A stretch of DNA of 61,438 bases, counting the filler. It is 9 parts of 9 records of this genome, joined end to end, with 100 filler letters (N's around TTAATTAATTAA, not from the genome) between each part and the next. Parts side by side here need not be neighbours in the genome. Positions count along the whole stretch, not along the records: positions 27,531 to 35,088 come from SRR15195285_116; 8 more parts are not named here. The stretch is one strand, 5' to 3'. The position numbers and the translations under genes are program-made. The notes under the pieces were generated by a model that was not told the DNA's origin, searched no databases, and saw only the letters and a program-made list of their open reading frames with translations. Shown piece after piece: positions 3,597 through 45,772 of the stretch. Positions within the stretch are counted from its first letter, which is position 1; the number at the start of each line of letters is the position of its first letter.

Positions 3597-4415
3597 CTAC
3601 TTGGCGGCAGTTCCGGCGGCGGCCGGCTTGTCCTCCCGTCGCGGGGCGAAGCGCTGCGGCGGCGCCCGCTTGCGGCGGTTGGTGCGCGACCGCACGCGCA
3701 CGTAGTGCGAGTGGATCGCCGCAGAGATGGAGAAGTACATCTTGTGGTACAGCTTCGGGAGCGCGTACCCTTCGATGGCGGAGGCCTCAGAGATGTCACG
3801 GAACGACGCAGCGTCGACCATGTTGCGGACGACGTACCGCTTGACCGCCTTGTCCTGTAAGACAAACGAAAAGACGGAGCACTGGGTGAGTGGCTGATTG
3901 AGTGGCTGATCGAACGTGTATCCTACTGCTAGCCCCCCGCCCCCCCTTTCCCGCCGAATTTCCGATACAGCTGTTCCCGCGGCCGGGGTCCGGGCGAGGC
4001 AAGCAGGTGCCCCTCCTCCCAGGGGCCTGCGCTCTAGCCGCATGCCGTGTGTCGCAACCCCCGGGGGCGGCGGGGGCACGACGAGCGGCGCCGCGCCGGC
4101 TCCCTCGACAACGGCGAGAGAGGAGGCAGCGGGGCCGGGGTGGCACATCACCACCCGGCGCAACGCATGCGCCAGCCCCGCAGCGAACCCGCTCCAACCC
4201 GGACGGCGCCGCACCACGGCGCCCATCTCGCGGCGCAACGCAGAAAGAAGCAGAATGCCGCTGGCACACACAGACAGAGCCCACCCCGCAGGGGAGTCGA
4301 AACAGCCACTCACCTTCGGGATGCACTTGGAGCTGAGCGCGCAGCGCACGAACTTGACGTGCCCACGGGCCTTCGGCGGCTTGTTACGTCCGGTGGCGCG
4401 CCTCTTCTTGGTCAT
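3597..4415 (-). CDS. RPS26: 40S ribosomal protein S26 (eS26), 119 aa, 2 exons
   Basis: Exon 4415-4314 [25 protein letters not shown]...IPK, 459-nt GT-AG intron, exon 3854-3597 [14 protein letters not shown]...YALPKLY...[11 protein letters not shown]. Confidence 0.97.
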
Positions 4416-4504
4416 CTCGGGCTGGTTAGGGGTTCTGGCGGTGCTGTCGGAGCCACCGCGGCTGAGCGCCGATCGAATCGCCGGCGGAAATCGCTATTAA
4501 TTCA

Positions 4505-4604
4505 NNNNNNNNNNNNNNNNNNNNNNNNNNNNNNNNNNNNNNNNNNNNTTAATTAATTAANNNNNNNNNNNNNNNNNNNNNNNNNNNNNNNNNNNNNNNN
4601 NNNN
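4505..4604. other. Artificial contig spacer
   Basis: 44 N + TTAATTAATTAA (stops in all frames) + 44 N; identical spacers recur 8 times. Confidence 0.99.
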
Positions 4605-5200
4605 AACGCCTCGTGTTCGCGCGCTGGGCGGCACGAATCTGTGTCTTGGGTTAATTTAACATATGGGCTTGTAAGATGCTCCTGCATGTCTACACTCATT
4701 TAGACATTGGAGTGCGTTTGCGTAGAAGAGTGCTGCCAATCTCCTTTCGTCCCTCCCCGTCTCCTCGTCACCCCTCATGGCATCTTCACACAGCCAGTAC
4801 CATCACTCGTGGGTCAGGTGCATGGCTGAAAACCATGAGAATGCCTCTCTTCGAGAGCTTAAAAGTACAAAGACCACTTAACTAGCACCGGGCAAAAGGC
4901 CTTATGCCGTGATAGATGTATTTGTATATTGATAGATACCTGATGGAACCTCAAACCAATTAGTATTGGCCCCTCAGCAGTGAGTTCTGGGTTTTGAAAA
5001 TTGGTTTCTGTCAATACCAGGCTATTTTGGGCATCTCGTCAACAGGTGCTACCAGAGCGTTGCTCGCGCTGTAACTCGTCACGGTGGGTGGGAGGGACCT
5101 ATTCCTTGTGACTGGACCGTTGGCTGCGCTCTGGGCCGCGCACTAGGGGTATTTCGTGGCCCAGTCTGATATTCATTTATGTCCCATGGCTCGGGATCCA

Positions 5201-7996
5201 CTACCGATTGAAACCATGTTGTCCATTTCGGAACACGTCAACGCGAAGCGCCGCTGGGCTAAGAACTGTGGCGTCGAGATCGCAAGATTTCAGCACAAAG
5301 ACTCGCCGCAAGGTACCCATCGGTGCGTTTGTACTATTGATTCTAGCGACTAGCGCAGAACTTCCTGGACCGAGACGCCAGGCCGTCCCGTCGGCAGGAA
5401 AAGGTAGAATGACTTCGCGCGAGCATTCAGACGATGTCATGCACCCGCCAATGTAGTGCCCATTCACCCAGAATTTGATGGATGATGCATTCCTGCCGTC
5501 CTTGAGGTACAGTTTGGAGGTAGTGTTGTCGCCAAACAACGGTGGACTGCTGCAATCGGTTTTGTTGTCGGTGCATGTATCGATGTCGTGCAATGCCCAC
5601 CAGCTCACGCCTTGGTATGGCAGACCGTTTGTGCGCTCCCACTCGTCTTCTGCGAGGCTTCCGCAGCGACCACACCAGTTCATATCGAAGCACCCGACTG
5701 CAGACCGATTCCATACTGAAGTGTGTGGATAGGTCGGTCGGAACCACTTGTCCTTCAACCCTATGTCAGAAGGATCCAGTGCCATGAACCAAAACAGAGG
5801 TGAGAGCATGTAGTCTGGCAACTGAGAGACAGGTGCGTCCCCAGTTGCTAAAAGTCCGAGAAGATCGCCACGCTCGTTCGCTTTCCCCAGGCCGAGATAA
5901 GTGTTGACGACATGTTGCCCAGCAATAGCCTGAGCTATTGCATGTAGAGCCCTTCCAGCAGCGATCATTTCTCCTGCTGGCACGGTCAAGTGGCTCACTG
6001 TGCGGCGGTAAATCCCAGCTGATGGAGTGGTTGCGTTAGCTGCTGTCGCCATTGCATCCGTGTAGGCCAAATGAGCTCGTGACTTAGCCACTCGAACGCA
6101 CGCAGCTTCGCTGATCACACCACAGTAGCTTTCTGCCTGCGTAAGCAATGCCGATGCCTGGCCGAGTACTGCTTTGCTGTACAAGCTTCCAGCCATTATA
6201 AATTGTGCTCGTTCAGCGCCTAAGTTGTGGTCATACTCAGCAATGCGCGCTAGGACGGCTGGATTCGTATAAACTCGCTGTGCAAATTTCCGCCAGAACG
6301 AATGGTAAGTTTGCATATATTTCGAAGCTTGTCCGAACCCACTGTAGTACTCCGACATTATGGCTGTTCGATTGGCTCTGGCTGGATCCCAAAGAGTCCG
6401 TGCCAACGCATAGTATGACGGTCCTACTGCAGCCCAGTCGCCAAGGAGTGAATCAAAATCTGCTGCATGCATCGCATTCTGACCACACCACTCGATGTCA
6501 TCCAGCCACTGTTCTGAGAAGACAAAAGGAAGTCCCGAGTATTCTGACCAAAGAGAATTCGGTCGAAGCGCCAAGCCTTTGGCACCCGCGGCCAGCCAGC
6601 CAGCCCAGCCAGCTCTTGACTCCGTCGAACTATTGTCTTCCACGGCCGAACCAAATCCCACGCTCAGGACTAAGACCTTTGATTCGTTGTCAAAGCGCTG
6701 CCGGAGCGGTGGATCTGTGTACGAAGCATACGCGTATGCACCAACCCAGCCCTCAGGATGACCAGCCTTTCGCAGTGCACGATGCACGGCATTCCAAAAG
6801 TAGGTGTATCGATCAGAAAGCCTCCCGTGAGGACTGTGTGCCCTCTCTGGTGGGTCAAGCTTCCGGCACTTCGCACAGGTACAGTAGCCAGCATCATAAT
6901 CGTCTTCGCACGCTGAGACCCCAATCTGACCCGAGTCGACGAACCCACCTGCAACATGCTTCGCCATCCCATCGGAACTTGGATCGACTTTGACGTACTG
7001 GGCATGGTTCATACAATCTGTCATCTTTTGGCACCCTCGGAAGCCGTCCTCGTGCAGAGCAAACCATGTTGGATGTGTTGCACCATACTTTTCCCACGCG
7101 CCCATGAATGCCTGTCCCCAAGGCACAACGTGCTGACCACCGAGGCCATTCCGCAACATCCACATTGCGTCCTCCTCCGCACTGCGTTCCACTGCCTCTG
7201 CTACACCATGCCATGTTGGCCCAAGTGCTTGCGTGAGTTCATGAGGGATTCCGGAAGCTGGGTCCGGCCGAATTCGTCTCAGTGCAATTCCTGGCACGGT
7301 CCGAATGAACACGTTGTTTGCAATAGTCAATGTACGGCTGGGCTTCGGCCGGACCACTCCATCTTCTCCCGGCCAAATCCACCTTACACCAAGAACCTCA
7401 CGAAGCAACGTGACGGCCGCGTAAAAGGTGCCGCCACGACACCCGCTCTGCGTCGAGGCAGCCATTGCGCCCACACATGCCGGAATGCCCGAGCCCAACG
7501 CCGAGCGGCACGCACTTGCAGCCACTGGAGAGCCGGAATCGTCGCCGAAAACGTACATGTCATTTCCAACGGTAGCCACTACTGCTTCTTCAGCGAGAAA
7601 TTGTCGCACTCGAACACCCGCCACTGCGCTACGTGTGGTGTTGCCAACAAATAGACGTGGCGAGAACGTCACCCCCTGGGACATCACGGGCTCGAACAGC
7701 AGAGGTGGTAGCGCAGCCATGTCACCGACAGTGATCATGGCTATCTCCCGACGCAGTTCTTGGGCTGCCAGGCGCTCGATACAATTCGGAATAGCTGGAA
7801 GCACCACCGATACATTGAGAAGTGACAACCCTGGTGGCTCCATCACGACCTTGTCGTGCAATTGTGGCTGCTGCACCATCGGTACTGCACGAAGCGTGGC
7901 TGTTTCGATGCTCAGTCGCAACAGCAGCAGCACTACTCGCGTAGTGCTCTGGCGAGTACATGTAGTGCTGTGTGCGCCATCCTGACACTGCAGCAT
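5201..7996 (-). CDS. Secreted DUF4838-like putative carbohydrate-active protein, 931 aa, intronless
   Basis: Hydrophobic leader VVLLLLRL; GH20b/GH67N-like N-terminus (LAAQELRREI...GTFYAAVTLLREVLGVRWIWPGEDG); HPTWFAL, GYCTCAKCRKLD, LSDRYTYFWNAV, YAYASYTDPP, YYALARTLWDP; C-terminal DPSDIGLKDKWF...YQGVSWW sugar-binding-like module. Confidence 0.7.
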   Translation of the reverse strand: MLQCQDGAHSTTCTRQSTTRVVLLLLRLSIETATLRAVPMVQQPQLHDKVVMEPPGLSLLNVSVVLPAIPNCIERLAAQELRREIAMITVGDMAALPPLLFEPVMSQGVTFSPRLFVGNTTRSAVAGVRVRQFLAEEAVVATVGNDMYVFGDDSGSPVAASACRSALGSGIPACVGAMAASTQSGCRGGTFYAAVTLLREVLGVRWIWPGEDGVVRPKPSRTLTIANNVFIRTVPGIALRRIRPDPASGIPHELTQALGPTWHGVAEAVERSAEEDAMWMLRNGLGGQHVVPWGQAFMGAWEKYGATHPTWFALHEDGFRGCQKMTDCMNHAQYVKVDPSSDGMAKHVAGGFVDSGQIGVSACEDDYDAGYCTCAKCRKLDPPERAHSPHGRLSDRYTYFWNAVHRALRKAGHPEGWVGAYAYASYTDPPLRQRFDNESKVLVLSVGFGSAVEDNSSTESRAGWAGWLAAGAKGLALRPNSLWSEYSGLPFVFSEQWLDDIEWCGQNAMHAADFDSLLGDWAAVGPSYYALARTLWDPARANRTAIMSEYYSGFGQASKYMQTYHSFWRKFAQRVYTNPAVLARIAEYDHNLGAERAQFIMAGSLYSKAVLGQASALLTQAESYCGVISEAACVRVAKSRAHLAYTDAMATAANATTPSAGIYRRTVSHLTVPAGEMIAAGRALHAIAQAIAGQHVVNTYLGLGKANERGDLLGLLATGDAPVSQLPDYMLSPLFWFMALDPSDIGLKDKWFRPTYPHTSVWNRSAVGCFDMNWCGRCGSLAEDEWERTNGLPYQGVSWWALHDIDTCTDNKTDCSSPPLFGDNTTSKLYLKDGRNASSIKFWVNGHYIGGCMTSSECSREVILPFPADGTAWRLGPGSSALVARINSTNAPMGTLRRVFVLKSCDLDATVLSPAALRVDVFRNGQHGFNR

Positions 7997-27530: not shown

Positions 27531-28580
27531 GCGCCACCACCGCCGCCGCCGCCGCCGCGGCCGCGCCTGCCTGGGGGGGAGCCTCCATCAGCGAGAGAGA
27601 CGCACGTGGAGGAAGGTGCACCTCCAGCCCGTTTCGCGCCCGCCATTCCAGCATATCAGACTCCGACTCGCTGGACGAAGATGGCGGCCTATTCTGTGTG
27701 CCGCCGCCACCGCCGCTGCTGGGGGCTGAAGACAGAGGCCCAGGAGCCACGACGGCAGTCACGTCTACCAGCGCATCATCGATCGCGCTTTGCACGACGT
27801 CTGCCGCCAACAGGGACTCAAGAAAGCGACTGCCGGCCTGGCGGGTGCCAGCCCCGGTCAAATCCCCACTTCCAGCTCGATCACTGCCTTCCTTTATATT
27901 GCCTTGCTGCAAGGCAGACTCTGCCACGATGGCGTGCGCAGAGGAGACAGGGGGAGCAGCCTGAGGGGTCTCCTCGGTTCCCTCCGCGTCTGGCTGCGTC
28001 GGCTGCATCACATTTTCCACGGAGTGCGACAGCACAGCGCGCTGCGCCTCCTTGCTCTGTGGTGATGGTAGCGAGGCGCCAGTGACGGCTGTGCTGCGAA
28101 GCGCAGCAACGATAGCTGCATGCGTAGCGCGTGCAAAGAACGTCTGCGCAAACTGCGCCTCACTGAACACATTGGACACCGGGCGCATGAGCCCCCACCG
28201 CCCGAATAGTGTGCGCCTGGGGCACGGGCAGCCCCCTCGGGCACGGCTAGGTGGCAGAAGCCGTCCTTCCAATTTTGGCACAGCGGTTTCGGCAGAGGCG
28301 GAGGCGGCGAGAATCGTGGAGGAGCGGAGCCCATGCACCTGCCTGCTGGATAGTAGGCAGCCAGCCAGTACGAGTACGTCAGTACAGGCCGTACGTCGAG
28401 AGAGGATAGAGCTGCCCTGCCTGGCCCTGCGCCCTGCTGCTGGGGGCGGCGCTCTGGGTCCTGCTGGGTCCTGCCATTTTTGCTGCTGGACCCGTGTCGA
28501 TCGACGGGCTGTGCGCCGGTCAATTTTACTTGTACAAATTGGGTAACCGAAGTTTCAGGGGATGCAAGATGCGTCGCCAA
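27531..28580 (-). CDS. Hypothetical low-complexity protein, partial
   Basis: Frames 28580-28395 and 28338-27531 join via a GT-AG intron; no ATG start found and no recognisable domain; runs off contig. Confidence 0.3.
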
Positions 28581-28718
28581 AGTCCGAAAATCGATTCACA
28601 GAGCTCCACTTGTCGGAAACACTGAAATTGTGCTGCCAGTCCGCGATTTGCAATCTCGGCGGTCTAAGGACGGTTTGCAATGCTTTCGGCGGTCTAAGGG
28701 ATCCTGAGGAGACTCTGT

Positions 28719-29225
28719 TACCCGCTACTGTACAGCTGTACTCGTACTACGAAGGAACCATATTATTAGACATCAGAGGAAAACACAAAGAGTACTAGTC
28801 TAGTACTAGCTCTAGTACTATGAAATCCCACGCAGCTACGTCCGTACTGTATGTACGACTAGATGGGTAGTACGAGTGCCGGTACAGTACGGTACGGTCT
28901 GCTAGGTCTAGTATCCAACCCACGCACCGCCGCGGGGATTCTTACTGTACAGCTGTACTCGTACCAGTCTAGTACTCGCGCTAGTACTATGAATTCCCAC
29001 GTAGCTACGTCCGTACTGTACGTACGACTAGATGGGTAGTACGCGTACCGGTACAGTACGGTACGGTCTGCCAGGTCTAGTACCAGTACCCAACCCGCGC
29101 ACCGCCGCGGGGGACCTGGGGGGGCTCTGCTACCCGCTACTGTACGGCTGTACTCGTACTACTAGTAGTACTAGATCTGGTACTCTGAACTCCCCTGTAG
29201 CTACGTCCGTACTGTACGTACTACT
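28719..29225. repeat. Degenerate tandem repeat, ~190-220-bp unit, ~2.5 copies, GTAC/CTAG-rich
   Basis: TACTGTAC(A/G)GCTGTACTCGTAC at ~28726, ~28943, ~29138; AGCTACGTCCGTACTGTA three times; GACTAGATGGGTAGTACG...GGTACAGTACGGTACGGTCTGC...GCACCGCCGCGGGG twice. Confidence 0.9.
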
Positions 29226-30743
29226 TGCCGTGGGTTCACCTTCGTTCCGGAGCAGTATCAGGCAGGAGTCTGCAACATTTTCGTGGCGAACTCCACCACC
29301 AGCGTATGGGTCAACGCCAAGCCGCTCACTCATCCACCGGGTGTGACAGGCGAGAAGGGCTGCTATGCGAAGGTGGCAAACTGCAATTCTATGCCCGCTG
29401 CATGCAGCACTTGCTCATACAGCCTGTGCTTTGGCAGAGGAGCCAACTCCACCTTCTGCTCCAGCCCAACTGCCTCAGTCATGCTGTCAGCACCCAACGC
29501 CGCTTGCCCGTCGAATTTTGCCAACGTCTGCAGCGGATGCAACGCATGCACAGACTACCAAGGTTGCCTACCTGATGTGGCTGGGACGCCCGCCACTTTG
29601 GAGCTCATTCCAGGCTGGGTGACCATCGACGATACCAAAAATTGTCCCATCGCCCACGCCGATAAGTATGAAATCAAGATGGTCAACTTTTCTGCGCCCG
29701 ATTTCACGCCAAAACTCGTGAACAAAAACTGGGACTGTGTCCAGTGGTCTCTTCACGAGCAACCCTCTCAGTGCAACGGCACGTGGGCCACCGGTAACAG
29801 CGCGTCGCAGCCCTTCAGCGCGGGGATGCGTGTGCTGGAATGTACTGGGGTCACCCCAGCAGGCAGCAACGTCACCAACTGCACGCTGCTGATGGCCGAC
29901 CAAGCGGCCTCCACGTGCCGCGCCGTGTGTGCTGGCATACCGAGCTCAAGCGCAGCGACGGCTGGCTGCGTCGCGGCTGGCTACCAGTTACCGGACTGGA
30001 GCCCCCCTCAATGCACACTCTACGACAACGTGGCCTTCCCCTCGTTCGCGACGCTGCCGGTCGCCCCGAAAGGGGGCACCTGCGCGACGGACCTCAACGG
30101 CGTGGGCTGCTGCTCGAGCCAACCTCCGGGATCGGTCACGCACTCGGCCACGCCGCACCCGCACTATGAGGCCTGGCCTCCCGTCTGTCTCAAGCCCTGC
30201 GTCTCGCGCATCCAGTACCTGGAGGTCATGCCGCAGGGGAGCGTGCCCTACCCGGCACGCTTCGTGGCCGCCTCCAATCGCTCGATGTACCACCTCCGCG
30301 TCCGCGTCATGAGTACAGCGATCTGAGCCGAGCCCTGACTTGGCTGAGATTTACCTACGTGTTGAGATACCGATACCAATGCTGATGACATTGCGGAGCA
30401 GGTACTGCAGCGAGGTGGCAGCCTGCGACATTTCTGCATGGTGCGTCCCCTGCTGTGTATCGTGCTGCTGTGTTCGGTGTGCCAGTGTGAGCGGATGTCT
30501 GTGTGAGCGCGTTGCTTCTGGCTGACATGGCGTCGTCTCGGCAGTGACGCGAGTGGCGTCCTCGCCCACACCAACTTCTTGGCCTGGTGCCGCGATCTCA
30601 GCACGCCGCTGGCATGCGGTAACTTGACCAGCTCACGCGCGTGCAGCGACATGGGCACCTGCAGTTGGCACGTCCCACACGGCAGCTCTGCAGGGACTTG
30701 CCAGACACGAACTGCGTCCTCTGGCCCACCGTCTGATGGGTAA
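29226..30743 (+). CDS. Cys-rich extracellular-type protein with PAN/apple-like modules, 5'-truncated
   Basis: Exons <=29226-30286, 30402-30440, 30545-30743 join in frame (...NRSMYCSEVAACDISACDASG...). Starts mid-module (CRGFTFVPEQYQAGVCNIF); second module CRAVC...GCVAAGY...QCTLY; many NxS/T sites. Confidence 0.55.
30287..30401 (+). mobile_element. Introner-like intron
   Basis: GTAC at intron start is repeated at next exon start; end arms GTACCACCTCCGC / GCGGAGCAGGTAC match 11/13 as inverted repeats; core GGCTGAGATTTACCTAC at 30342-30358. Confidence 0.55.
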
Positions 30744-30942
30744 GGTCTCGTGTAAACGTAGTTTGTTATGTGATTGTCATGGTCAAGTCGTCGTCGTAAA
30801 GGTTCTTCTTAATAGATGTTTTTTATATACTTTATACATGCGCCCGACTGGCATCAGCCATTCCTGCACTTCACTTGCACACACATTCATTGCCATTCGC
30901 TGCCACTCGCCCACCCACCTTTTTGGTCTCCCGCTGCGCCCT

Positions 30943-33426
30943 CTACGCCCACGTGTAATTGCTTCGGCGGTTTGTGCAGTCAATCTCCACCGTCAATCTC
31001 TCAAATTTCCGCGAGAAGACCAAGCCAGACTCAGTGTAGCGCCCCAGCGGCTCGCCGGCCGCCGCCACCCTGACCACGGCACCATCGCCCGTCAGTATCC
31101 ACCAGGGCCTCGAGTACATTGATCATATGACGCGGAACAGGTAGATCATAATAAGAAGTGACTGAGATTTCCCTGCGATTCTACATTTGTGCGATCCCAT
31201 GATCTCCGCCCGCACCCGTATTTCACCTTCCGAACAGGTCTCTGACCTCCTCCCAGCTGGTGTCGGTGTCAGCCCACCGCGGCCAGCCGCTCCATCCCTC
31301 ATGGTCGTAGCCGAAATGCGATCTCAGGCCCGTGGGTTGGGGGTCCGAGGCCGACTCCCGAGCCAGCAAGAACATCGCGAGCGCGAACCTGTTCGATCAC
31401 CGCGTCGTCAAGCAAGCGTGTGGTGGGGGGGCGGGGGAGCGATCTGTTAATAATGCGGGGCGATGATCACACTCACGGCAGGCTCAAGGTTGACGGCGGT
31501 GACCGCTTGCCGAGGGTGACGGCGGCGGAGGTGGCGGGGGCGACCTGGCGCCGCGGAGCCGCCGCCTTGAGATAGCCAATCTTGAGGCCGAGGCACTCGC
31601 CTGCGCGGAATTGTCCGGCAGCCAGCACAAGAGTGCCGTTGCCTGGCTGCCCAGCGGGCCCACTCGGCTTCCACACGAAGCGCTGCTCGTCGGTGGTCTT
31701 GTCTCCTGTGCTGCACTGGAAGAGCTTGGCAGACGCGTGCGGCGGAATGGCCACGCAGAACTGAGCCGACGCCACCTGGATCCTGCCCTCAGCGGTCAGC
31801 TTCAGCTGGAGCGGGGGGCACGCCGACTTGGACGCGCCCCCTCCCACCTCTAGCTCGGTGCCTGCTCACGTGACGACCGTTTCTCAGAATGGCGTTGGAC
31901 GGGGTGAGGGTCGCGGGGGGCGGTCGCCGCACTCACCGTTGCGGATATCTTCCAGCTGGCAGTTGGGCCAGCTCCCCATCCGCAGTCCCGAGCCCCCCAA
32001 CGCCGCCGAGACAAGCGCGGATCCCTCCTGTGGGCTGCTCCACGCCCACTGGGCGCTAGGAAGGCTGCATGCGATGGCGGGGCACTCCGTGGTGCCGCTC
32101 GGCGGAGGCGGGAGAGGGTCGCAGGTGGACCTGTCGCCCCGGAGCGTTTGCCCCCTCAATTTCTTGACCAGAACGGGCGCGGCATAGGTGGGTCCCAGTC
32201 AAAACGAAGAAGCAACCAAGAAGTGGCCAACGCCGCGCGCACGAGTCCCAGATGCAGCGCTGCGGTGGACAGGCGGGCTGCGACCTGTAGCTGTCACACG
32301 GCGGCGACGGTGGGCGGTGTGGGCTGGGCGACGGCCCCCGCCCCGGTGTTCCCCACGGATAATTGGACGCCGCGGCGATGAACGGCACCCCAAGCTCGGC
32401 CTCCCTGGCCGCGTTGCGGATGGAGTTGGCACAATACAGCGCGTTCGCCGCCACCGTGTGCTGGTCCCCCGGGTGGGCGAAGTACTCGTAAAAGCGCGCC
32501 CAGCCTTTCCGCGCCAGTGAGGAGGTGTTGATCGCCGCAAAGGCTGCGTCCTCCGACACGGGGCATGATTTGGTCTTCATCAGGTACGGGGTGGACGCAG
32601 TGAAGGAGTTCTGGCTCGAGATGATGGCGTGCTTGCCTGCCCGAGCCATCTCCTCTGCGGCCAGCCGCCAGGCCTGGATCGCACCTGCCTGCCATTCCTT
32701 CGCGCTGGGCATCGTCTTGCACGTGTTGTGCGAGCGGCAGGAGTAGTGGCACGCGAACGAGTCACCCTCGTCGAAAAATACACCGTCGACTCCCTGCGCT
32801 CGGGCGAAGTACCCGGCGACCTGCGCCGCAAGGTACTGCCGCGCGGACTCATTGCGGAAGTCCCACATCCGCCCGCCTGGTGTGTCGCCCGAGATAGGTT
32901 TGCCGTCGTCATCGTGCACGTAAAAGCCAGCAAATGCCGGGTCTGACAGGACCTTATGCTGAGCAGAGTACGCGGCGACGATCCCTGCGCATATGACGCC
33001 AGCCGTTGTTGCAGGGCGCAGCGTCATAAATTCTATCAAGGACAGGGCATGTTGGGCGGCGCAGCTGAGTGGAATACGCTCACCCTCGAACTGGCCACAG
33101 TATGCGAAAGTCTTAGTGGCGGGCGATTTTGCCTTGATAGCCGAAAGGATCGTAGCAAGCTTGGCCTCCTCGCCCCCCTGCTGCCCCGGCATCTGATCCT
33201 CACCCCACCCCATGATGACCAGCTGGTAGCTGGACGCGATGAGGAGTTGCCTGGCGTGCTCTTGTTCGATGGTGAAATTCAGCCCCTCGCGCTTAGGACC
33301 GTCCGCCGTGTTGTTCTCCATGAACACCATCGAGGGGAAGGGGCGGGCGGCTACAGTACGGCTCCCGGCAGCAACGGCGCGCAACAGCACCGTCGCCACC
33401 GTTGCAGCGCTAAGCAGCACCGCCAT
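30943..33426 (-). CDS. Secreted GHL15-like putative glycoside hydrolase with internal ricin-B-like module, 650 aa, 6 exons
   Basis: Exons 33426-33084, 32984-32243, 32130-31937, 31861-31477, 31388-31227, 31069-30943 in frame (1953 nt). Signal peptide; MWDFRNESARQY...GVDGVFFDE; FALAMFLLAR...HFGY; GEPLG...VFSRKFERLTVEIDC; ricin-like QWAW, FCV...LFQC...EQRFVW. Confidence 0.7.
31070..31226 (-). mobile_element. Intron carrying introner-like core (antisense to host)
   Basis: Plus-strand AGTGACTGAGATTTCCCTGCGATTCT (31157-31182) is 23/26 identical to 35012-35037; flanked by AGATCAT/ATGATCT inverted repeat. Confidence 0.55.
32131..32242 (-). mobile_element. Intron carrying degenerate introner-like core (sense to host)
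   Basis: GACTGGGACCCACCTATG (32200-32183) with subterminal inverted repeats GCGTT..TTCTTG / CAAGAA..AACGC. Confidence 0.4.
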
Positions 33427-34333
33427 ATGGACTGCGGACGCCGTCCACACCCGCTTAGTATCGTACCATGGGATAGGCCCTGGCTGGCTGGCTATTAAAA
33501 TTCAGCAGGCAGCATGCATGCAGCGGCGGCGGGGAATCCCAGCCAGCGGCCGGCCACAATTCTCGGCCGAGCGCTGGCGCGGCTGGGGGACACAGGGGGG
33601 CGTTACTGCCGGTTGTGGCACCTGCGCGGCAATGTTTCGATGTCCCCATTGGCGGCCCCGATGCCCCCCGGCCTCTCCTGGAGTAGCCCGACATGCCTGT
33701 GCACGCCTGAAATAGCTGCCCCATCGCCGCCGGGCGGCCGCTGGCTATCAATATCGCTGCATGCAGCCATGCAGCCATGCAGTAGGTAGATCGTAGATCT
33801 GGCTGTCAGCAGATCCCTAAGGTACTAAGCGGGTGTGGGCGCGGCGGCAAGCAAAGCAGATCGAATGCTTGCTTTGCTTAGACTTACTAGTGCCGAACCG
33901 GCTGTGATGCCAGCAAAGTAAGTCTAAGTCTAAGTAGTCTGATGCCAAAATTCACTGCTGTTCCGCTGGGCGGACTTCGCTCAGACTAAGCTAGTAGAGA
34001 CGAGCTCGTACGTGTGTGAGACTCCCCTACCCCTACATGTCCATTCCCCTACATCTACGTATCTTCGCGTGGATTGGGTCGCTGTGATGAAGGCATTGCG
34101 TGCACGGCGTGCCAATAGGTGGCGGCGCTGCGCCAGGCGCTCGGATATCGGTGTGAATCAATACAATCGAGTTGTAATTTTACTCGAGCCGGTGCAGCGG
34201 CGCAGTCACAGTCAGGCCCGCCGCAGCGGTAAGGGAGTCGATGACTTCCGGGACGCTCCACGCATCTCTCGGAGGCGGGCGGTGCTGGTGTGGCTGGCTT
34301 GCTTGGCGCCTGCGCCTGCGCCTGCGCCTGCGC

Positions 34334-35088
34334 CTACGCCGGGGGCACGGCTTCGAAGCTGGCCAGGCGGGCCGCGAGCGCCTGCAGCTCGGTCTCCTGC
34401 GCCGCGTGGCACACCACGCAGTGTCATAGTGTCATAGTGTCATGCCGGAGCCCGCTCGCAGCCAGCACGAGAAGCCCGGGGACAGCGGACAGCGTACCTT
34501 CGCTGCCAGCGTGGCGTTGTTTGCCGCTAGCGTGGCGTTGGTTTGCGCTAGCGTGGCGACCTACGCCCCACCGCACAATGTTACCATGCCACGCATCAGA
34601 CCATCCGCCAAGGCACCCAGCGCACGGCACCCAGCGCACCTTCGCGGCCAGAGCGTGCGTATGCTCCGCATCCTTGGCTGCCAACGCCGCCTCATGTTCG
34701 TGATCCTGCCGTGATGCATTTTGTCGATACATCAAGTGAGGCGATGCCAATGATGCCAATACTCGAGTCCGCTCTCAAACAGCGTACCTTCGCCGCTAGC
34801 GTGGCGTTGGTTTCCGCTAGCGTGGCGTCCTGCGCCCCACCGCACACAGTTACCATGACGCACGCACCTCTGGCAAGGCGTGTGCTCTCTGTTTCGCGCA
34901 CCTTCGCCGCCAGCTCCGCCTGCTGGGCTGCCACAACTTCCAACGCCTCGTCCAGGGTCGAGGGCGGCGCCTGGGCGCCCGCTGCGAATAGTTCACGATA
35001 AGAACCGGATCAGTGACTGAGATTCCCCTAAGATTCTGTTCATTTCATGTTCGGTTCTTAGCATGATAAAAGTTTCGTACCCGCTGCG
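34334..35088 (-). CDS. Coiled-coil repeat protein, 3' part (short exons)
   Basis: Exons 34981-34902, 34829-34788, 34705-34640, 34560-34498, 34396-34334 give QQAELAAK/DATLAETNATLAAK/DHEHEAALAAKDAEHTHALAAK/VATLAQTNATLAANNATLAAK/ETELQALAARLASFEAVPPA*; four donors are AAG|GT phase 0. Confidence 0.7.
34982..35080 (-). mobile_element. Introner/MITE-like intron with 9-bp flanking direct repeat
   Basis: CCCGCTGCG at 34978-34986 and 35080-35088; inverted repeats TCACGATAAGAACCG / CGGTTCTTAGCATGA (13/15); core AGTGACTGAGATTCCCCTAAGATTCT; GT-AG boundaries fall in or at the direct repeats. Right repeat abuts the contig end. Confidence 0.6.
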
Positions 35089-35314: not shown

Positions 35315-38300
35315 TCATTCGTTACCGAGATTTCGCTGCAGGTCTATCGCGTCGGTGTCCAGTTCATCCAGATCTGAATCGCCTTCTTCATCCTCATCAG
35401 ATTCTGTGTCCGGGCATGCCATGGCAATGGTGGTTAATCCTTGTATGAACTCATCTAAATCGACCGTTCCGGACTCATCGGTGTCGACCATTTTCATCAT
35501 CTCTTCCTCAACCCTGTGGGGCATTTTGCCCATCAACATCGCCATGCCCTTCCGCATCTCGGACTCATCGAGCTCGCCGCTGTCGTCGGCGTCGAGCTTT
35601 TCGAAAACCATCTCTATCTTCTTCACGTCGACCTCTAGGCCATCTTGCTTGGCACGTTCCAGTCGCTCTTGCCTCTTGTGCTCTTCCTGTGCTTCAGCCT
35701 TTTTCATACGTCGTTTTTCGAAGAAGCCTGGCTTGCGTCCACTCTCGGGCTTTGCGGCTTTCGGATCTCCTCCCCCTTCGCTGTCGTAACCTTCAGGCTT
35801 GCGCTTTTTCACTTCACCAAAGAGCACGCGCAGAGAACGCAGACGTGCCACGCATGCTGCATCCGATGCTTGCAAGTAAAGGGCCTGGTTTTTCGACCAG
35901 ATCGGCAACTTCGGGAACTTTTTACCGCCTTGGGTCAAGCCAACGCGCCGTCGATTGACCCACCACTGCAGCGCTGATTTGATGACGTGCAAACTGATTG
36001 TGTTAAGCTCTTTTTCGTACTCTTTAGCTTGGTCCTCATAGCTCAAACATTTTTGCTTTCCGAGGTTTAGCATTGCAAGTCGCTCTAGTGTGCGATGAAA
36101 AGATAGTCCACGTATGTCAACCAAATATAAACCGTTCGAGTTGCGCCGTTTGGTTTCCTTTCTCTTCAGTTCTTTCTTCGATGCTGCCATGCAATGCATC
36201 TCAATGTTGAAAATCATATAGGTTGTCCAACGTCGTGTCGGCTTGTGCCCACCAACTACCTGTCGATGATGAAGGCCGCTGATCAGTCTTGAAAGTCGCA
36301 CCATTGGCAGGTCTAGCAGCGCAATGTTGTGCGACGATCGCACTAACTCGCTCGGTGCGAGCACGGCCGGCGGAAGTGGCTTCGGGCGAGTTGCCTCGGG
36401 GCATCCGCGTGTGAGCCATCGCACGGCACTCACCCAGGCCATTTGACACTGTGGAGAGAGTGCCCGGAAGCGATAGTCAATGCGCGTCTGCCTTATCACT
36501 GCCAACTTCGATTCCGAAAGCTCATCTTGCTTGGCTTGGTCATTCTTTTTGCTTTGTTTGAGACTGGCATACTTCTCTTCGATGTTTGTCGCGATCCTAA
36601 CTAACTGGGTCACCTCGTCCTGAGAGGTCGTGGCTACGTACTTGAGCGCCAACGTCACAGTCCCAGCATCCGTGTCATCGACATCTGTGGTCAAGTCTCG
36701 CTGAGAACGCTGCTCCGGCTTGAGACGAACTTTTACACCTGTTCGCTCGGAAGCTCCCAGATCAACGCTTGATGACCCATCCTCTGCCACAATTGCATCG
36801 CTTGTCCAGACTGGGCCAGGACCGTCTGAGCCGATTTGCAGCTCGGCAGTGCCTATCAGCAGGTCTCTCAAGGATCTTCTATCGTAGACCTCAACAAGCA
36901 GTGTTTTAGTCGTTACCATTGCATCAAGAGAAAATTCGTGGTTCCACGCTGGGTTCAAGTTGTCTTTCACTGGCTGCGTTTCAACAACGCGACGGTCATC
37001 ACCGTACGCCTTCGCTAACGAGCCTGATGAGATGAATGTCAGTACGCAGTATGGATCGGAGGTCTCTCCAGTTCCTCTGGCAACATTGATCAGCTTCTCC
37101 GCAGACACAATCTGACCAGATATATGACCAACTGTCTTCTCTGCCTTTTGGTCTTCGTTATTTTCGTCGCAACCAATTTGAAACTCGCATCCGACGTGTG
37201 TCGCGTTCTTGGCGCCCTGATGTTGGCCATCTTCCCCCTCTCTGTATTGAAAAGCGCCAAAGATGTTCATGATGGATTCTACCTTGATTTTTTTCAACTC
37301 GATCTTGTCTGCAGAACCCTGATGCTCGAGCTGATTTCCATCCATGGCGTTGGTAACGATCTTTATGCACCCGTTGCTTGTGGTACCTTTGTCTTGAATG
37401 TAAACGAATTGGCGCACAAATGGGCCACCATCAAATGAACACTCCAACCATCCTTCGACGCCGCAATTCGCTTCCTTATGCGTATACGTCACTTCATACT
37501 CGTCTAGAAAACCCATCTTAGGCGTGTGCAGGCTGAACCGCTCGAACGCAAACGTGACCTGCAGCGTCACACCAGAATCTACCCACTGTTGGGCGACTAC
37601 AGAATCTGAAGGATTCCTCGGAGACAGTGACTCAGCATCAACTTCGGGAATTCCTAACTTCTTGCGTCGCTTTCGTTCCATTTTAATCGCTTTTTGCCTA
37701 GCCTTGTCAGCCTTTTTTTCAGCTTTGAGGCGCTTCTTTTCTTGCTTCTCCCATGCTTTCTGTTCTTTTTTCAGTTGTCGCAAGTCTTCCTTCGTCAGCG
37801 TCTCAGTTGCTGTAGGGTCCATATCAGCAGGCACGGCGTTGTTCAAACCGTTTTCGAGTCGAGATAGATTGCCTGCGCGTGGGGACAATCCGCCCCCGCG
37901 TGGAGACGATCCGCCTGCACGCGGAGACAGCGCACGTGGAGACAGCAGTGTGCCGCCAAGATCGCTCTCATCCTGTACCATCTCCAATTCGTCGATAACC
38001 TCTGCTTTGTAGACCGTATCTGTCTCGAAACGAGCCCAGTGGTCAGTTCCGGACGAGGATGCTCGCGGGCTCGGAGGCTTGGCATTGATGCGCTTCTGCA
38101 GTATTATATTCTTTGTCACCGGCTCATCTGACTGCTGAAGTTCCTCCCGTGAAAGCTTTACAGCCCCAATGAAATCGGCGACGAATTGACAGTTATCGTG
38201 AACCTCGATTGTCAACGCGTCGTGGTGCTCGTTGATATACATTGACAACGTATACCCAACAGCTTTTGTGACCGGATCTGGCGTGAGGGCAGGGATCTCT

Positions 38301-41300
38301 ACTCCTTCCTCGAATTGTGCCTTGCCGTCAGTTGTCGTGGCTGCCTCTGGTGTCCATACTTCTTGCCTGTCATGACCATGCAGTTGAACTTTGCAGTACG
38401 GTCGAACAGTATCGTTCTGAAGGTCAGAAGCGCTCTGGATCGTCACTCGTAGACTACCTTGCTGGTACGATGCACCATCCTCAGGCACCCTGTCACTATC
38501 ATCTGTTTCGTCTGTTTCGTTGTTTACGATTCGGCCTAATGAGTCGATTGGATTCGCGACCTTGGTTGCAATCGTCTCCAGCAAAGACTTTTTCTTGGTT
38601 GCAAACGGAACGGCGTGTACGCCTATTGTGAGTGCAGCCCAGCAGTGCGCGAACCCTTCGAAGTCATCCAGTCGGGTTCCTTCCGTATCGGTGTCTGCTG
38701 TTTCGGCAGCAAAGGTGTCGAGAACACTAACAAGCAGCAGGTTCATACACACCCAGACGATGACCATGTAGTACGTCGCGAAGTACAAGAATGGTTGCCA
38801 AAAGCCTGCACCTGCATCAGCAAGATCTGCAACAAATCCACCGATTTCTTGGCCAAACACTATCTGCACGAGAACGGCTGCTGCCGAAGGGAACGTAGAG
38901 AAATTGTTGTAGTCGTTCAAGAACTCCATATCCGGGTGGAGGCTTAAATCGATATTTCCAAACAGATTCACGCCAACGACACCATACACATATATGATAA
39001 CGCACGAAATTGCTATTAACGCCATACTGGCTCTCAAGCAGTTGATCAGCGACTGAACCAGAGCCACCAGAGTAGGCATCTTCGCTGCTAACGCTATGAG
39101 CCGGAACACGCGCACAACTCGCAACGCCTCGACGCCGGACCTGATCTGCCCTAACCGTAGGCCCCACGAAACCAGCACAAGGCAAAAGTCTGACACGAGC
39201 CAACCGCTGCCAAAAAAGCTCTTGACGCCGTAGCCCGTGAGTTTGATGATCACTTCCAAAGTGCAGAATGACAAGCACGCTAGATTCAGGTAGACAACGA
39301 CCTCATTTCTCACCTGACTGGCTGGAAATTTATCAGTGGCCAGTGTGATTGTGTTGACCATAATGACCGATCGCCAGAACACCTCCAGCTTCTCGTTTGT
39401 AGCAAGGTTGAAGTTCAGCAGTCTCCACCGGAACCACCAGTCAGGCACTACTACCTTGCAGCACTTCTCTGTAGCAACAGGCCTTACGCCTTCTAATTTG
39501 GTAACCGTTGGATGAAAGGCTGCAATGCTTTGCCTCACAGCCTGCCACTGCCTTTGTCGGATGGTGTGTGTTGCTGTTCCTTTACTTTTTGAGAAGGATG
39601 CGGAGAGCACACCTATGAACAGGTTAAGAAAAAAGCATGTGAACACCAGGTGGAAAGCAATCCAAAACAGGATCGATCCGTCATCGCCCAGTGCGGTTGT
39701 GGAATCAACCATATATGGATGGACTCCGTCCGCTAATGCTACAAAGAGCAGTGAGACTCCACCTAACGTGTTGTCAAAGTTAAACATTTCAGAAACCCAG
39801 GTGCCACCAGCCTTCACACACGATTCCAGGTTTAGCAACTTGTCTGCTGCACTGTCAATATTCAGTGAAACATCTACAGATTCAGCAATGTTCGCTGCTG
39901 CAATGCACCGTGATTCTGTCACCACTGTGCAGCTCGCGTGACATTCACCTAAAGAGCCACCAAACCACTCTTGGCCAACCACTGCAAACACCACGGCCAT
40001 CAAGAACAGAGGTAGAATAATGACCGATGTGTCGGGAATCGAACGTAAAAACGACATAACCACCAGCAGAATTTCCGGGCTCTTCGTCAGATTCACCAAT
40101 GGTGTCAGAACACGAACAACGCGCAGCGACTTCGCCCACCCGCCCTGTAGCTGGTCGCCAATCCACGGCAAATATCCAATCACGCACACCACGATGATCA
40201 AGAAATCGACACGATTCATCTTGGTCTGCAGGTACGATTTGGACGGTCCGGAAGAGTAGTAGAAGCCATGTATGACGATCTTCAAAGCGGCCTCCACCAA
40301 GAATGCAAAAAGCACAATTGCACTGATCGCATCAAAGTATTCTCCGTAATTTTGTCTAACGGGTCCGTTATCAGGGCCTTCAATGGCAAGCGTTAGACAG
40401 GATACAAAAATTAGAACCAAGATGGTGTTCCTGAAAATAGGGTGACCTTGCACACCGGCACAGCCGATCCGAAATGGATGCGTCAGGGTAAACAAGTAGA
40501 GCGATTTGTTCTTATTGTCGGTCAGGTCGGCGACTGCAGCTGCATGTAGTAGCAGGTCTTTGATGGAGTCTTCGTTTGTGTGTGCAATGCCTTTTGTTTT
40601 CTCTGATTCCATGGTCTTGACCAGCAATGAGCCTCTGCCTTGCCGCCAGTGCTTCATTGCTTTCTTCTTCCGTCGCTCCCACACCTTCTTTTGAATGGGC
40701 AACTTCTCATCCTCCTGAAGATTGAAGTTCTCCAGCAACATGGCAATAAACAGTGAAAACAATATACAGTTCATCCACAGATATTGGATCATGAAGAATG
40801 CTGAGATAAGAGTTGTCATGGAGCCGGAATCACCACCCACATGAGCTCTATACCAGTACATGATGTTCGCCCACTCTTCTCCCACCGTCAATTCAAAACA
40901 AGCAAGAACGCCTCTCAGGAATGTCTCATAATTCTCGTATGGATAGTCACCGGCGACTGCCTTTCGGCAGTGATGGCATTCGAAAAGGGCAACTTTTTCG
41001 TGCTCGGGACAAAGACCTCCTGGGGAGTCTTCTAGACTCAAACTGCAGCCGAGAGACCCACCGAGAACATGCATGCCGATCACCGCGAACATGCACACCG
41101 AGAAAGCGCAGAAGATTGCGTGTACACAAATTGGCTTCCACGCAGAAAAAATGGTTTGGAGAACAACCTTCAGTGCCTTCTGTTTGTGCAGTAGTCGCGC
41201 TATCTGCAGAGCACGAAGAAGTCGCACTGCTCTCAAAGCCTGCATTCCATCTCCACCGTCACCACTGATATTGAAGGTTTCTATGATTTCGTCGTGAAAC

Positions 41301-44300
41301 ACCACCGCGAGGTATCCAATCATGCAAACGAAAACAACAAAAAAATCAAAAATGTTGGACGCTTGCGAGAAGTACAACTTCCGCCCGAGTCCCAAAATCT
41401 TCGAGAAGAACTCCAGTATAAATATCGCTAAGAAAGTTGTCTCAACAAAGTTCAGAACCCTGGCTGTCTGTGCATCGATCCCTTGGTGGTTGAAGGCCAT
41501 TACTACAGTGTTTCCAAGAATCACCACAGAAATGACCATTTCGAACGCCTGCGACAGTATGACCGTCTTGCACATGTTTCTACACCCAGCAATCTTCGAT
41601 TCTTTTTCATACCAGTCCAATGTGTCCACAATTTCCTCCGTCGTCAGTGCATCTTTCGCCTGTTGGGCTTCTCGCAGCTCTGTCTCTTCTGGGGTTTCGC
41701 TCAGCTGAAGCGCTTCGAGTCGCTTCTGGTGTTGAAGTTCCTCTCTTTGCTCGAGCTCTATCATCTCGCTGTTGATGTCCGAATATGCGCTACAGCATAC
41801 CGCGAGGAACAGGTTCAGTGCAAGCATATTCAGCAGCACGGATGCCAAGAAAAATATCAGCCAAGCCGTGCCTGATGATGCTCCTCCGGATGCATATAGC
41901 GCCTCTGGCATGACGTGCATCCCATCACCAGTCATTTGCACAAACATCGTGACCACAGAGCGCACAATGTTGTCGAAATCCTGAAATCCAAATTCGTCAG
42001 ACCCTACGAGAAGGGGAGTAGTCAGTGACTCGCATGCCGCCAATTCAGATTCCGACGCTGTGTAGTTGTTGAAACCAATCTCTGAGCACTCGCCACTTCC
42101 CAGCTGCATGCAACGAACGATGTCAGTGTTCGGAGGCAGTACCGACTCCGCATCCTGTGCACACAACATTGAGACCGGACAGCTTATCAAATCGCCGTCA
42201 TCCTGCAAAGGCTCCGTGTGCCGCAGTATTCCCTTCGTGACTAAAGTTTGTGGTAGATACAACAAACACTGATTGGTGCAGCCCACTGGATAATCCGTTC
42301 CCACAACCATGTCTTCGGATCCCGTGATCGATGAGCGCGCAAGAAGCGTGTCCATGCACGTGTACTGAATGGCGCCGCTAAAGCATGACATGCCAATCAG
42401 AGAGAACAACAGCAAAAGGAAGAGCAGCAGAACACATACAGTGAAGAAGATGCCCATGGAAGAAGCAAGAATTTTCACAACCAGGTCTATGTGGCGAATC
42501 ATCCGTAGGGTGCGAATCGGCCGGATAATCCTGAAGATTCTGCTGACAGACACTAGTTTTGCCAATGCCTGACCGTCGGTTCTTCCCGTTAGCTCAACAG
42601 GCTGGAAAATCGTCGCCCAGTTGCACAGCATTACATACAGCGCAAGTATCGTCCATGGATTACGAAGCTCAGCCATCAAGTCGCCATTGGAGAGGTCGGA
42701 GAACAGCTCTAAAAGCAGCTCAATTGTCATGTGAGTGGCAACGAAAATCTCCAGAATGCTCAGGGTGCCTTGTAAAGCATCACTCGGTGGATCAGTTGGG
42801 CTTTGAAGCGCTAAAATGCACATGGAAACCCCAACCATTATCAAGACGGTGGCCTCAAAATACCACGACTTCGTGACAGACTTTGCAGCCTTTTCCGCCG
42901 ATCCACCGACGGGCACGTAGAGTAGCCTGAGGTGGACAGTTCCAGCGTTGACAGCGTGTTCTTTTGGCTCTCCGCGACCTGCATTCTTAACTTTCTCAGC
43001 GATCATTATGTCAACCTCGATTATATCTTCCCCAGTCATTTCCTCTGACCCGCCGCGTTCGAGGTTTCCGTTGCCATCCAAGCTCAGGATGGCTTTCCCC
43101 ATTGACACTGGTTTTTTGGGCTTGCTCATATCAACTACCGAGATCAGTAATTCTCTAGATCCAGCGTACGCGACCATTTGATCAAAGTCTTCGTCCCATT
43201 CCGGAGAGAGAGTGTCGACGAGTGGTTGTGACTCCGCTGACTGCACCCTGTGGGCCTTCACAGCGGTATCAGGTGTGAGCAGCTCGACCACACACTTGGG
43301 ATCGCGGCCTCGCTTCGACTTGGTGTCATAAAGATCACGGCCGGCCACTATGGTCCCTCGCAGGGTTCCCGTTGGCGGCCCGCCTGCCTGTTTCTTCAGT
43401 TTTTGTTCCGCCTCATAATCAAGATCAACGATCATTCCCCACCCAAGCTTTGCCAAGAGCAGTTGTAGCAATATCGCGGCAACCTGTGCATATTGAAAAT
43501 CTTCTGGCTGAACGCCATGCTCCCGTTGCATATAGGCAACAATGCACGTGGCTGCTCCGTCTTCGCACATGCAGAGCTCGGACCCTGCTGCCTCAGCCCG
43601 CTCGGCAACCGTGGAGTTTTCATTGAGAGTGAAATTCGCGCTCACGTCGATCCCGAGATCTGCACACAGCTTTGCTTGTGCAGCAGCTGCACTACTCTGG
43701 AAAACCAGTAGCATTTCATCGCCGCGTGCGACAACAACCATTGCGATACTAAATTGCATAATCACCGCCATGAGCAGCATAAACGTGTACAGATTAAGCC
43801 CCGCCTCATTGGCCCGGTGCGCTGCTCGAACGCCCCAGGCTAGCACTAAAACCAGAAACGTGCTTTGCACGACGAGTACAAACGTGATTGACTCGGTGGC
43901 GACGGAAAAAATGTACCAGAACATGGCGGCCACCAGCGACGCGTACAGTAACGCGAGCAGCGACAGCACGAGAAACGCCATGTAATGTAGTCCCTTACGC
44001 CCAAGCCCGAGAACAGCCTCCTTTTCGAGAAACATATCAACACTGTCGTCACGACTGAGCCCGGGGCTCATCGGACTCATCGGACTTTCAGTGCCATCGA
44101 CACCTGCCGAAGAGTCAGGCGGCGCCGCTGCGTCTGTTGACTCCATACCTGTTGCATCTTCAGATGAGTTGCCAAGGAAGCTATCGATATTTTTGAGGGT
44201 GCTGACAAGCTTGTCATCTTCTGCCTCTACCGGGTTCTCTTGTGCGGATCCGCTCGTACTCGCGGTCTCCTGCGCCAGAGGAAAGAAACAGAGTCAGAAC

Positions 44301-45049: not shown

Positions 45050-45772
45050 CGGTACGTACCATTACTACTACTAGCTAGTACTAGTACATGTACTATTCGA
45101 ATATGTACCTAACACTACTAGTAGTACTAGTAGTAAAGTGGTACTATTCTGCAACGCAGCACCAGTGCAAGTCCTAGGATCCTACACGTACTATTCATTA
45201 TTGGATTTCCTTGATCTCCATTCATAGTACTGTACTGGTACCAGTACTGTACTTCAGGGTCTGGCAGTATTATAGTATACTCAGAGTAGGCTACACTAAG
45301 ATATGATAGTAGCATACCGCGGACAGCACTCATCTCACTACTGTACAGCTGTACTGTTTTCAGACGCGGCCCAAAAAGCATTCATCGATAGTGGTGTGGG
45401 TGCTTCAGTGCAGAGGTACAGCTGGGGTATGAAATACGTACGTACCACATACTAGTATGTACATGTTCATATGTGTACAGAGGGTCATACGGTAGTGGAA
45501 TTACGTACTAGTAGTGGAAGTACGTACGTACCGGTAGTGGAATTACTACGTACTGTACCGCTGTAGTAGGATCCATGTACTGGTAGTCATCGATACTACT
45601 ATTGTATAATAGTGAATTTGTACGAACCGCGGTAGTAGGAGAGTCTACACTGGTAGCCGAATTGTACCGCTAGTGTACTACTCATGTACGACAGCCGCTA
45701 CTGGCACTAGTGTGTAGTAGTGGAATTTCGTACTGCTAGTGTATAACAAAGCCATTAAGGCATACCCACGCG
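45050..45772. repeat. AT-richer low-complexity tract of GTAC/CTAG/TACGTA palindromes
   Basis: TACTAGCTAGTA (45069-45080), AGTACATGTACT (45083-45094), GTACAGCTGTAC (~45343), repeated GTAGTGGAA; no credible ORF. Confidence 0.75.

Follow-up and report, generated by a model that had tools for sequence, protein, structure and literature searches.

Introduction

Can short introns that resemble one another and interrupt different genes be traced to mobile DNA? The question is raised by contig 6 (positions 27531-35088; guanine plus cytosine content, GC, 0.617) of a stretch of 61,438 nt, called the window throughout, which consists of nine contigs joined by spacers N44-TTAATTAATTAA-N44. Four short introns of contig 6, numbered here as copies 1 to 4, had been taken in a preliminary description for an introner-like family. 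Three of these four look-alike introns contain copies of small cut-and-paste mobile elements, one of the three being marginal; the finding is real, narrower than the earlier statement, and of a known kind, that of introners or of introns derived from miniature transposable elements with inverted repeats (MITEs). It is held to be rather probable that some short introns of the contig 6 host are made of, or were invaded by, small non-autonomous, TA-inserting DNA transposons.

Introners were reportedly described as intron-generating transposons by Huff et al. in 2016. In the portions of two sources that were drawn on (PMC9860276; PMC11282704) they appear as the intron-generating transposons of Micromonas pusilla, Aureococcus and many eukaryotic metagenome-assembled genomes of TARA Oceans, and the portion of Gozashti et al. 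2022 (PMC9860276) demands that similarity reach both splice sites, so as to exclude secondary insertions. The criteria used in this work were at least four similar introns in unrelated genes of one genome, with similarity ending no more than about 10 bases (intron side) or 5 bases (exon side) from either splice site. Contig 6 was compared with one DNA run (X4) and three RNA runs (X14, X16 and X17; seawater metatranscriptomes).

Results and Discussion

Copy 1 and the first intron of gene 1

Gene 1 (+ strand) encodes a Cys-rich protein, and its intron 1 (30287-30401, + strand, 115 nt, GT..AG) is skipped with 0 mismatches in RNA contigs of X16 and X17, from two studies; since GTAC is present at either border, the splice joint can be placed only with an uncertainty of 4 nt. 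Offset from this RNA-defined intron by only 1-3 nt is the copy-1 element, 113 nt in length (30290-30402, + strand), with TA at 30288-30289 and 30403-30404, a core-like stretch at 30342-30358, and 10-nt terminal inverted repeats, CCACCTCCGC (30290-30299) and GCGGAGCAGG (30393-30402), matching at 8/10 positions; the RNA fold has z = -4.4. Deletion of the element together with one TA gave the peptide SNRSMYCSEVAACDISA, identical to the spliced product. The coding sequence is thus restored by splicing, in agreement with P0057, a transcript-like relative of gene 1 (82% identical) that reads NRSMYCSEVAAC across the copy-1 site and NRSMY|CSEVAACDISA|CDASG over both gene 1 introns; protein matches that are continuous across intron sites, P0057 included, may be transcripts.

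A scan for inverted repeats bounded by TAC...GTA (at least 10/12 matching, 50-170 nt apart) found the copy-1 unit as the only match outside the GTAC-rich repeats, about 1.7 matches being expected per shuffled window; the significance of the unit comes from its coincidence with an RNA-verified intron. Judged by its geometry, copy 1 has the classic introner layout. The element is situated at G^TA, the host G and the T of the duplicated TA forming the GT donor and the element's own end (...GCAG|G) supplying the acceptor AG; splicing takes out the element and one TA, and the reading frame is restored.

A contig of X14 matches 30342-30405 (3 mismatches, 3 gaps) and has other sequence on its left, which indicates at least one further copy of this type. 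The ends of copy 1 coincide with the splice sites, and this only known second copy reaches the 3' end alone. A DNA contig of X4, about 3% divergent, tracks the window to 30326 (40 nt into the copy-1 intron) and is then unlike it for 87 nt; strains therefore differ from one another in the interior of the copy-1 intron. The second intron of gene 1 (30441-30544, + strand) is ordinary and free of any element; it is skipped in contigs of X16 and X17, and its similarity to the element copies is not above background.

Copy 2 and its abundant family

Copy 2 (31144-31218, - strand; core 31157-31182) is flanked by TA at 31219-31220 and 31142-31143 and is contained in the last intron of gene 2 (31070-31226, - strand, 157 nt); gene 2 (- strand) encodes a GHL15-type hydrolase (Pfam E 6.7e-07) with a C-terminal extension. 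In one contig of X17, 31003-31068 is joined to 31226-31315, a one-base shift of the joint giving minus-strand GT..AG, and the continuity of the exons agrees with the homologues P0008 and P0010. Removal as a spliceosomal intron is thus seen for copy 1 in RNA of two studies and for copy 2 in one contig.

The translation of copy 2 (one open frame, 34 amino acids, aa) was searched by phmmer against 1.84 billion protein representatives. Of the 37 proteins found at E <= 1e-3, 35 carry a stretch of about 36 aa, typically xRVRVEIMGSQKCRIVGKSQSVLIMINPIIFTRTRx; the other two (Ig-repeat or other) lack the matched stretch and were set aside as spurious. With a local profile of 26 full-length stretches, 41 copies were located in the 35 proteins, six of which have two copies; P0032 and P0037 are the same locus, which leaves 34 loci, and the flanks of the stretch are mutually unrelated among the 35 proteins. 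The open frame of copy 4 is 31 aa, and the protein count of the family covers the copy-2 type alone.

At the DNA level one end of the stretch is the inverse complement of the other (RVRVEIMG... / ...PIIFTRTR), and 20 X4 contigs have, directly ahead of 31144, a consensus inverse to window 31192-31220; from both it follows that the element measures about 108 nt and each of its terminal inverted repeats about 27 nt. These repeats start TA-CGGGTGCGGG, and the match of other copies in X4 and X14 starts at 31144 and stops at 31220-31222. In the window the profile matches copy 2 only (E 1.6e-18) and covers profile positions 1-26 of 36; one terminal repeat has therefore been lost, that at about 31192-31218 being kept and the second missing. 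Copy 2 would accordingly be described as a dead, truncated copy of a much more abundant family. A duplication of TA on insertion is suggested by the codons that flank the element in the proteins, where the preceding residue is V, I or L (NTA-compatible) in 31/33 copies and the following one fits an A-starting codon in 21/23. The family has the terminal inverted repeats and the small size of a MITE and no open reading frame (ORF), stops occurring in 2/3 frames of one orientation and 3/3 frames of the other.

A Pfam search took in 29 of the 37 proteins (27 element-bearing), eight short ones being left out. A recognisable exon stands beside the element in four of the 27 (TatD, GH92, Arf and a weak GH43), and the GH92 homology ends about 10 residues before the element (PDB search); an intronic position is suggested for these four relatives and is known for the window copy only. 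Summed contig depth in X4 was 8227, 3537 and 417 in the bins with copies 2, 4 and 1, respectively, versus 15-20 in unique bins; it is not a copy number and was taken only as a sign that very many other contigs match.

Beyond the truncated end of copy 2 (31132-31143, - strand) the intron goes on with TA and CCTGTTCCGC, then TCAT as in copy 1. The segment CCTGTTCCGC agrees at 9/10 positions with a terminal repeat of copy 1, and local alignment of copy 1 with the 3' part of this intron gives p = 0.032; an element that is nested or composite may be present here, or the resemblance may be due to chance. The pair 31133-31142 and 31231-31240, a direct repeat (9/10) enclosing copy 2, was rejected as a target-site duplication; about 0.2 such repeats per intron are expected by chance, and the sequence behind it is not former exon.

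Copy 4 in gene 3

The product of gene 3 (- strand), a gene truncated where the contig ends, is a repetitive coiled-coil-like protein. The predicted intron of this gene (34982-35080, - strand, 99 nt, GT..AG; a prediction from sequence) is occupied by copy 4, an element of 93 nt and GC 0.38 (34987-35079, - strand; core 35012-35037) with internal inverted-repeat arms at 34994-35007 and 35052-35065 (12/14 matching, fold z = -1.9). A perfect 9-bp direct repeat, CCCGCTGCG, read from the sequence and checked by script, stands at 34978-34986 and again at 35080-35088, the contig end; the GT and AG of the predicted intron lie at or within these repeats, with an open frame downstream. Only 8 nt of the contig follow the predicted intron, the upstream exon lying beyond the contig end, and the absence of a bridging contig among the RNA runs X14, X16 and X17 counts nothing against splicing. 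A contig of X14 matches 35013-35046 only, with unrelated flanks on both sides. Copy 4 is a diverged, indel-bearing relative of copy 2 that fills the predicted intron, and it would pass on introner geometry if spliced as predicted.

Which introns share the core

The preliminary description had credited all four introns with one core, each copy having its own inverted repeat. The 16-mer given there is found at three places, 30342-30357, 31160-31175 and 35015-35030, all on the + strand and with 1 mismatch each. At <=3 mismatches 0.41 matches are expected, and 0/100 shuffles get to 3; the test is partly circular, because the copies it finds are also the source of the pattern. Between copies 2 and 4 the reported identity of 23/26 (31157-31182 vs 35012-35037) was confirmed by alignment, the local score being 37 vs a null maximum of 22 (0/200 shuffles as high) and the global alignment showing common blocks over nearly the whole length with four indels between; judged from these alignments, the two are homologous. 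The similarity of copy 1 to them is marginal: it reaches 16/20 and 19/26 against copy 2, the background maximum of other intron pairs being 15/20 and 17/26, with shuffle p of 0.015 vs copy 2 and 0.025 vs copy 4.

Copy 3 (32183-32200) was dropped as a family member; it scores at background level (14/20 and 16-17/26, shuffle p 0.32-0.62), its supposed core sits in a stem of the fold and not in a loop, and the surrounding intron of gene 2 (32131-32242, - strand) is an ordinary one. That intron is spliced in one contig of X14, is also present in the DNA contig of X4 with about 3% divergence, and is read through in P0003. A common core is thus retained for copies 2 and 4 and, marginally, for copy 1. 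Inverted repeats of their own are kept by copies 1 and 4 and are denied to copy 2, where the supposed repeat is a remnant of the long terminal repeat of the family, and to copy 3, whose core is part of the stem. The report of both orientations holds, since copy 1 carries the core in the sense of its host gene and copies 2 and 4 carry it in antisense; RNA junctions, which had been proposed as a check, were found in metatranscriptome contigs for the introns 30287-30401, 31070-31226 and 32131-32242.

The GC of the elements is 0.38-0.55 vs 0.62 for the contig, and TA stands at one end at least in all three window copies and at both ends in copies 1 and 2. The core is best read as an internal segment of an element lineage, its similarity coming from common descent and recent amplification and not from separate selection of a motif.

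Intron turnover in related loci

The exon joins of gene 2 were confirmed by alignment with 12 homologues. The same alignment yielded a further intron without element (32985-33083, - strand, 99 nt), which is in frame and stop-free and whose 33 extra residues are missing from 7 site-spanning homologues and from the loci L002 and L003. At L002 (82% aa identity; L002:317-386) there is a 67-nt intron that starts GTAC and is nearly all one TA-flanked unit with perfect 10- to 12-nt terminal inverted repeats, whereas coding sequence runs on without a break at this site of the window; L003 carries an intron of its own (160 nt). Introns of L002, L003 and P0002 are situated at or near window position ~32783-32806, where the window gene is uninterrupted. 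Since intron sites differ between close homologues, intron turnover looks fast in the lineage. We conclude that active intron turnover involving inverted-repeat elements takes place in the host lineage, and that such an element most likely gave rise to at least one intron of the window.

The L002 intron contains GTGAGATTTTC, which is weakly core-like; taken as a whole, the intron shows no significant resemblance to the window copies (p 0.19-0.67). A locus search with the hydrolase alignment returned 4 short loci only, and the copy-2 and copy-3 sites are in none of them.

Weighing of the explanations

The explanation preferred here is that some short introns of this host were made, or invaded, by small TA-inserting transposons. 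The elements would be MITE-like, with terminal inverted repeats, insertion at TA and duplication of TA; they would be mobilised by a Tc1/mariner-type transposase supplied in trans, and the insertion itself would create the intron. The designation as an introner family stands as far as multi-copy mobile DNA in truly spliced introns and the introner geometry of copy 1 are concerned, and falls for copy 3 and for the variable arms.

A number of observations weigh against this explanation. The link of copy 1 to the copy-2 family rests on p ~0.02, the only sources for its copy number are a single RNA contig and a depth bin in which intron 2 is included as well, and a peptide search for copy 1 returned only the window's own ORF. 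The splice of copy 4 is only predicted and would add 3 nt to the message; its 9-bp repeat is at odds with a TA duplication, so that a rearranged copy, or a capture in the course of break repair, may be involved. Empty sites were not seen, the X4 strain with about 3% divergence having the copy-2 and copy-3 introns. No copy was returned by five scans of public collections for DNA patterns, a 25-nt core of copies 2 and 4 being used on viral, metagenome and genome contigs and a 24-nt core nearer to the consensus on genome and viral contigs; these blanks say little, because the first pattern demanded the C of ...GTCAC, which is missing in most family members, and because metagenome assemblies break at the repeat (X4 contigs end at 30326 and 31195).

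The remaining adverse points concern the copy-2 type and speak at the same time for ordinary MITEs that settled secondarily in pre-existing introns and other non-coding DNA and survive there as exon insertions are purged, no intron having been created; this is regarded as unlikely. Copy 2 is not co-extensive with its intron, being 6 nt from the donor (GTGAAA) and 73 nt short of the acceptor; a branch-point-like CTGAC and an AG belonging to the intron itself are found in its 3' part, the family end is without AG, and the intron minus the element would measure about 79 nt, a normal length here. G precedes the terminal TA in 10/33 family copies, about the level of base composition and without excess, so that the family is not specialised to make a GTAC donor, and in two matches the element is 28-35 residues off the recognisable exon. 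Since the donor, CTGAC and the acceptor lie outside the element, which occupies only the 5' half of the intron, copy 2 may well have entered an older intron secondarily. Similarity from end to end is lacking in copy 2, which stops 73 nt short of the acceptor, and in the interior resemblance of copies 2 and 4, and interior-only similarity of this kind is excluded as secondary insertion in the portion of Gozashti et al. 2022 (PMC9860276) used here. An origin of all copies by secondary insertion is opposed by copy 1, which meets its intron within 1-3 nt at both ends and whose removal with one TA restores the ORF, so that an intron already present there would have been of hardly any length; copy 4, which fills a predicted intron between 9-bp direct repeats, and the L002 intron, nearly all of it an inverted-repeat-bounded element at a site of continuous coding sequence in the window, argue in the same direction.

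The preliminary description had further proposed a conserved core with variable arms, the reverse of a normal MITE. Selection of an internal core, with inverted-repeat arms replaceable from copy to copy, is very improbable: copies 1, 2 and 4 do differ in the arms around a similar core, the X14 match is confined to 35013-35046 with both flanks unrelated, and P0027 and P0033 have the core variant of copy 4 (GESQS) with altered right arms, whereas in the 41 translated copies of the main, copy-2-type family arms and core are conserved to about the same degree, truncation accounts for the odd arm of copy 2, the arms of copy 4 lie in sequence alignable to copy 2 apart from indels, the core match of copy 1 is marginal, and the sample consists of three window copies and one 34-nt contig match. 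A lineage of TA-inserting MITEs in which an internal module of about 45 nt was retained and the arms were exchanged or re-templated between sublineages, several of these generating introns and some being nested, would count as candidates copy 1, the copy-2 type, copy 4 and the RNA-library contig that matches over 34 nt only, and the 10-mer beyond the truncated copy 2, with its 9/10 match to a copy-1 terminal repeat, speaks for it; it is quite improbable. A reading of the shared motif as chance similarity, as a splicing signal or as an intron-encoded small RNA such as a small nucleolar RNA is extremely improbable and, for copies 2 and 4, stands contradicted already. The motif is short, and 14-15/20 arises by chance in copy 3 and other introns, but the alignment score of copies 2 and 4 is far above every shuffle and the stretch recurs in 35 unrelated proteins. 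The motif is antisense to the host in 2/3 copies and its distance to the acceptor varies, and the earlier argument for a DNA element over a splicing signal is upheld by the antisense orientation of copies 2 and 4. A curated small-RNA family in sense orientation was not found either, the core being antisense in copies 2 and 4 and the Rfam search of contig 6 giving no family at E <= 1.

Comparison with known systems

The elements share with introners, as these are described in the portions of the literature drawn on, short length, non-autonomy, AT-richer composition, terminal inverted repeats and a putative target-site duplication, as well as position in spliced introns of unrelated genes in a marine picoeukaryote; copy 1 shares also the supply of one splice site by the element and of the other by the duplicated target, the length of the mRNA being unchanged after splicing. 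The duplication differs, being TA here vs 3 nt for M. pusilla IE1 in the part of PMC11282704 that was used and 8 bp plus 12 added nt for Aureococcus sp. in PMC9860276 (Fig. 2F), and the window copies are alike in the interior and not at the intron ends, so that copies 2 and 4 would fail the end-to-end filter in the form published there. None of four motif strings is in the spreadsheet of Gozashti et al. 2022; the PDF appendix or the authors' repository may already list the family. A full-text literature search for motif strings gave, among the matches listed, unrelated primer matches only.

Stowaway-like MITEs, which are mobilised by Tc1/mariner transposases, agree with the present elements in a length of about 100 nt, the lack of coding capacity, long terminal inverted repeats, TA boundaries, high copy number and position near genes. 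In contrast to them, the terminal repeat here is not known to be related to the plant Stowaway consensus, at least one copy serves as a complete intron, and no autonomous partner was seen, nor any transposase among the 20 long window ORFs that were scanned. In Daphnia, introns are reported to be gained by repair of double-strand breaks, with short flanking direct repeats; copy 4 resembles this type in that a perfect 9-bp direct repeat encloses it and overlaps the two predicted splice sites, whereas the inserted DNA is here a recognisable transposon relative.

The contig and its host

Long ORFs of eukaryotic type are present on all contigs, their products including ribosomal protein S26e, ubinuclein, a ULK4-type kinase and several glycoside hydrolases. 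The kinase comparison gave a weak lead towards green-lineage ULK4/RUNKEL kinases. The best relatives of the gene 2 hydrolase are metagenomic, one being 98% identical; the best named relative reaches only 38% (EukProt), so that there is no close cultured reference in that collection. A fraction of 0.95-0.97 of the contig 6 words was found in three small runs of one study, one of these being flagged as its possible source, and about 0.4 in seawater metagenomes from several studies. The host of contig 6 is best explained as an uncultured, GC-rich marine eukaryote.

It had been suggested that contig 6 is from a different organism than the other contigs. Its tetranucleotide correlation with them has a mean of 0.63, inside the nine-contig range of 0.61-0.78, and an exact 18-nt word of a GTAC-rich intergenic repeat is common to contigs 6 and 7; the suggestion is therefore without support. 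Long genes of the other contigs are mostly intronless, in contrast to the intron-dense genes of contig 6; a four-domain voltage-gated-type ion channel with C2 and EF-hand domains (35318-44293, - strand, 2,992 aa) is a single uninterrupted ORF.

Further repeats were observed on contig 6. Between genes 0 and 1, at 28690-29230, there are GTAC-rich tandem or dispersed repeats with spacings of 169-196 nt and a summed X4 contig depth of ~100 to ~2000, versus 15-20 in unique bins; their 18-nt word recurs at 45338-45355, where contig 7 ends in intergenic, likewise GTAC-rich sequence. Immediately upstream of the start codon of gene 2, a region of about 400 nt (33442-33841) is bounded by a 24-nt inverted repeat (88% complementary) and is possibly a larger element with terminal inverted repeats; the summed X4 depth of 1460-5926 in the bins over 33327-34334 points to another very abundant repeat. 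Gene 3 (34340-35088, - strand) is internally repeated in units of exon plus intron, e.g., 34520-34588 vs 34789-34857 (91% identity), with the donor context GCGAAG|GTGCGC four times over, which reads as an intragenic tandem duplication and not as a mobile family.

Conclusion

Introners are the best-documented source of new spliceosomal introns and are most active in marine picoeukaryotes. The kind of element met here is already well described, and the gain is one more lineage and one more family, with no new principle. Copy 1 is a clean single-locus case without a cultured reference, in which inverted-repeat ends, a TA duplication, RNA-verified splicing and a restored frame are found together; the decayed copy 2, inside a nearby intron, shows how the creation of an intron and its secondary invasion can look alike.

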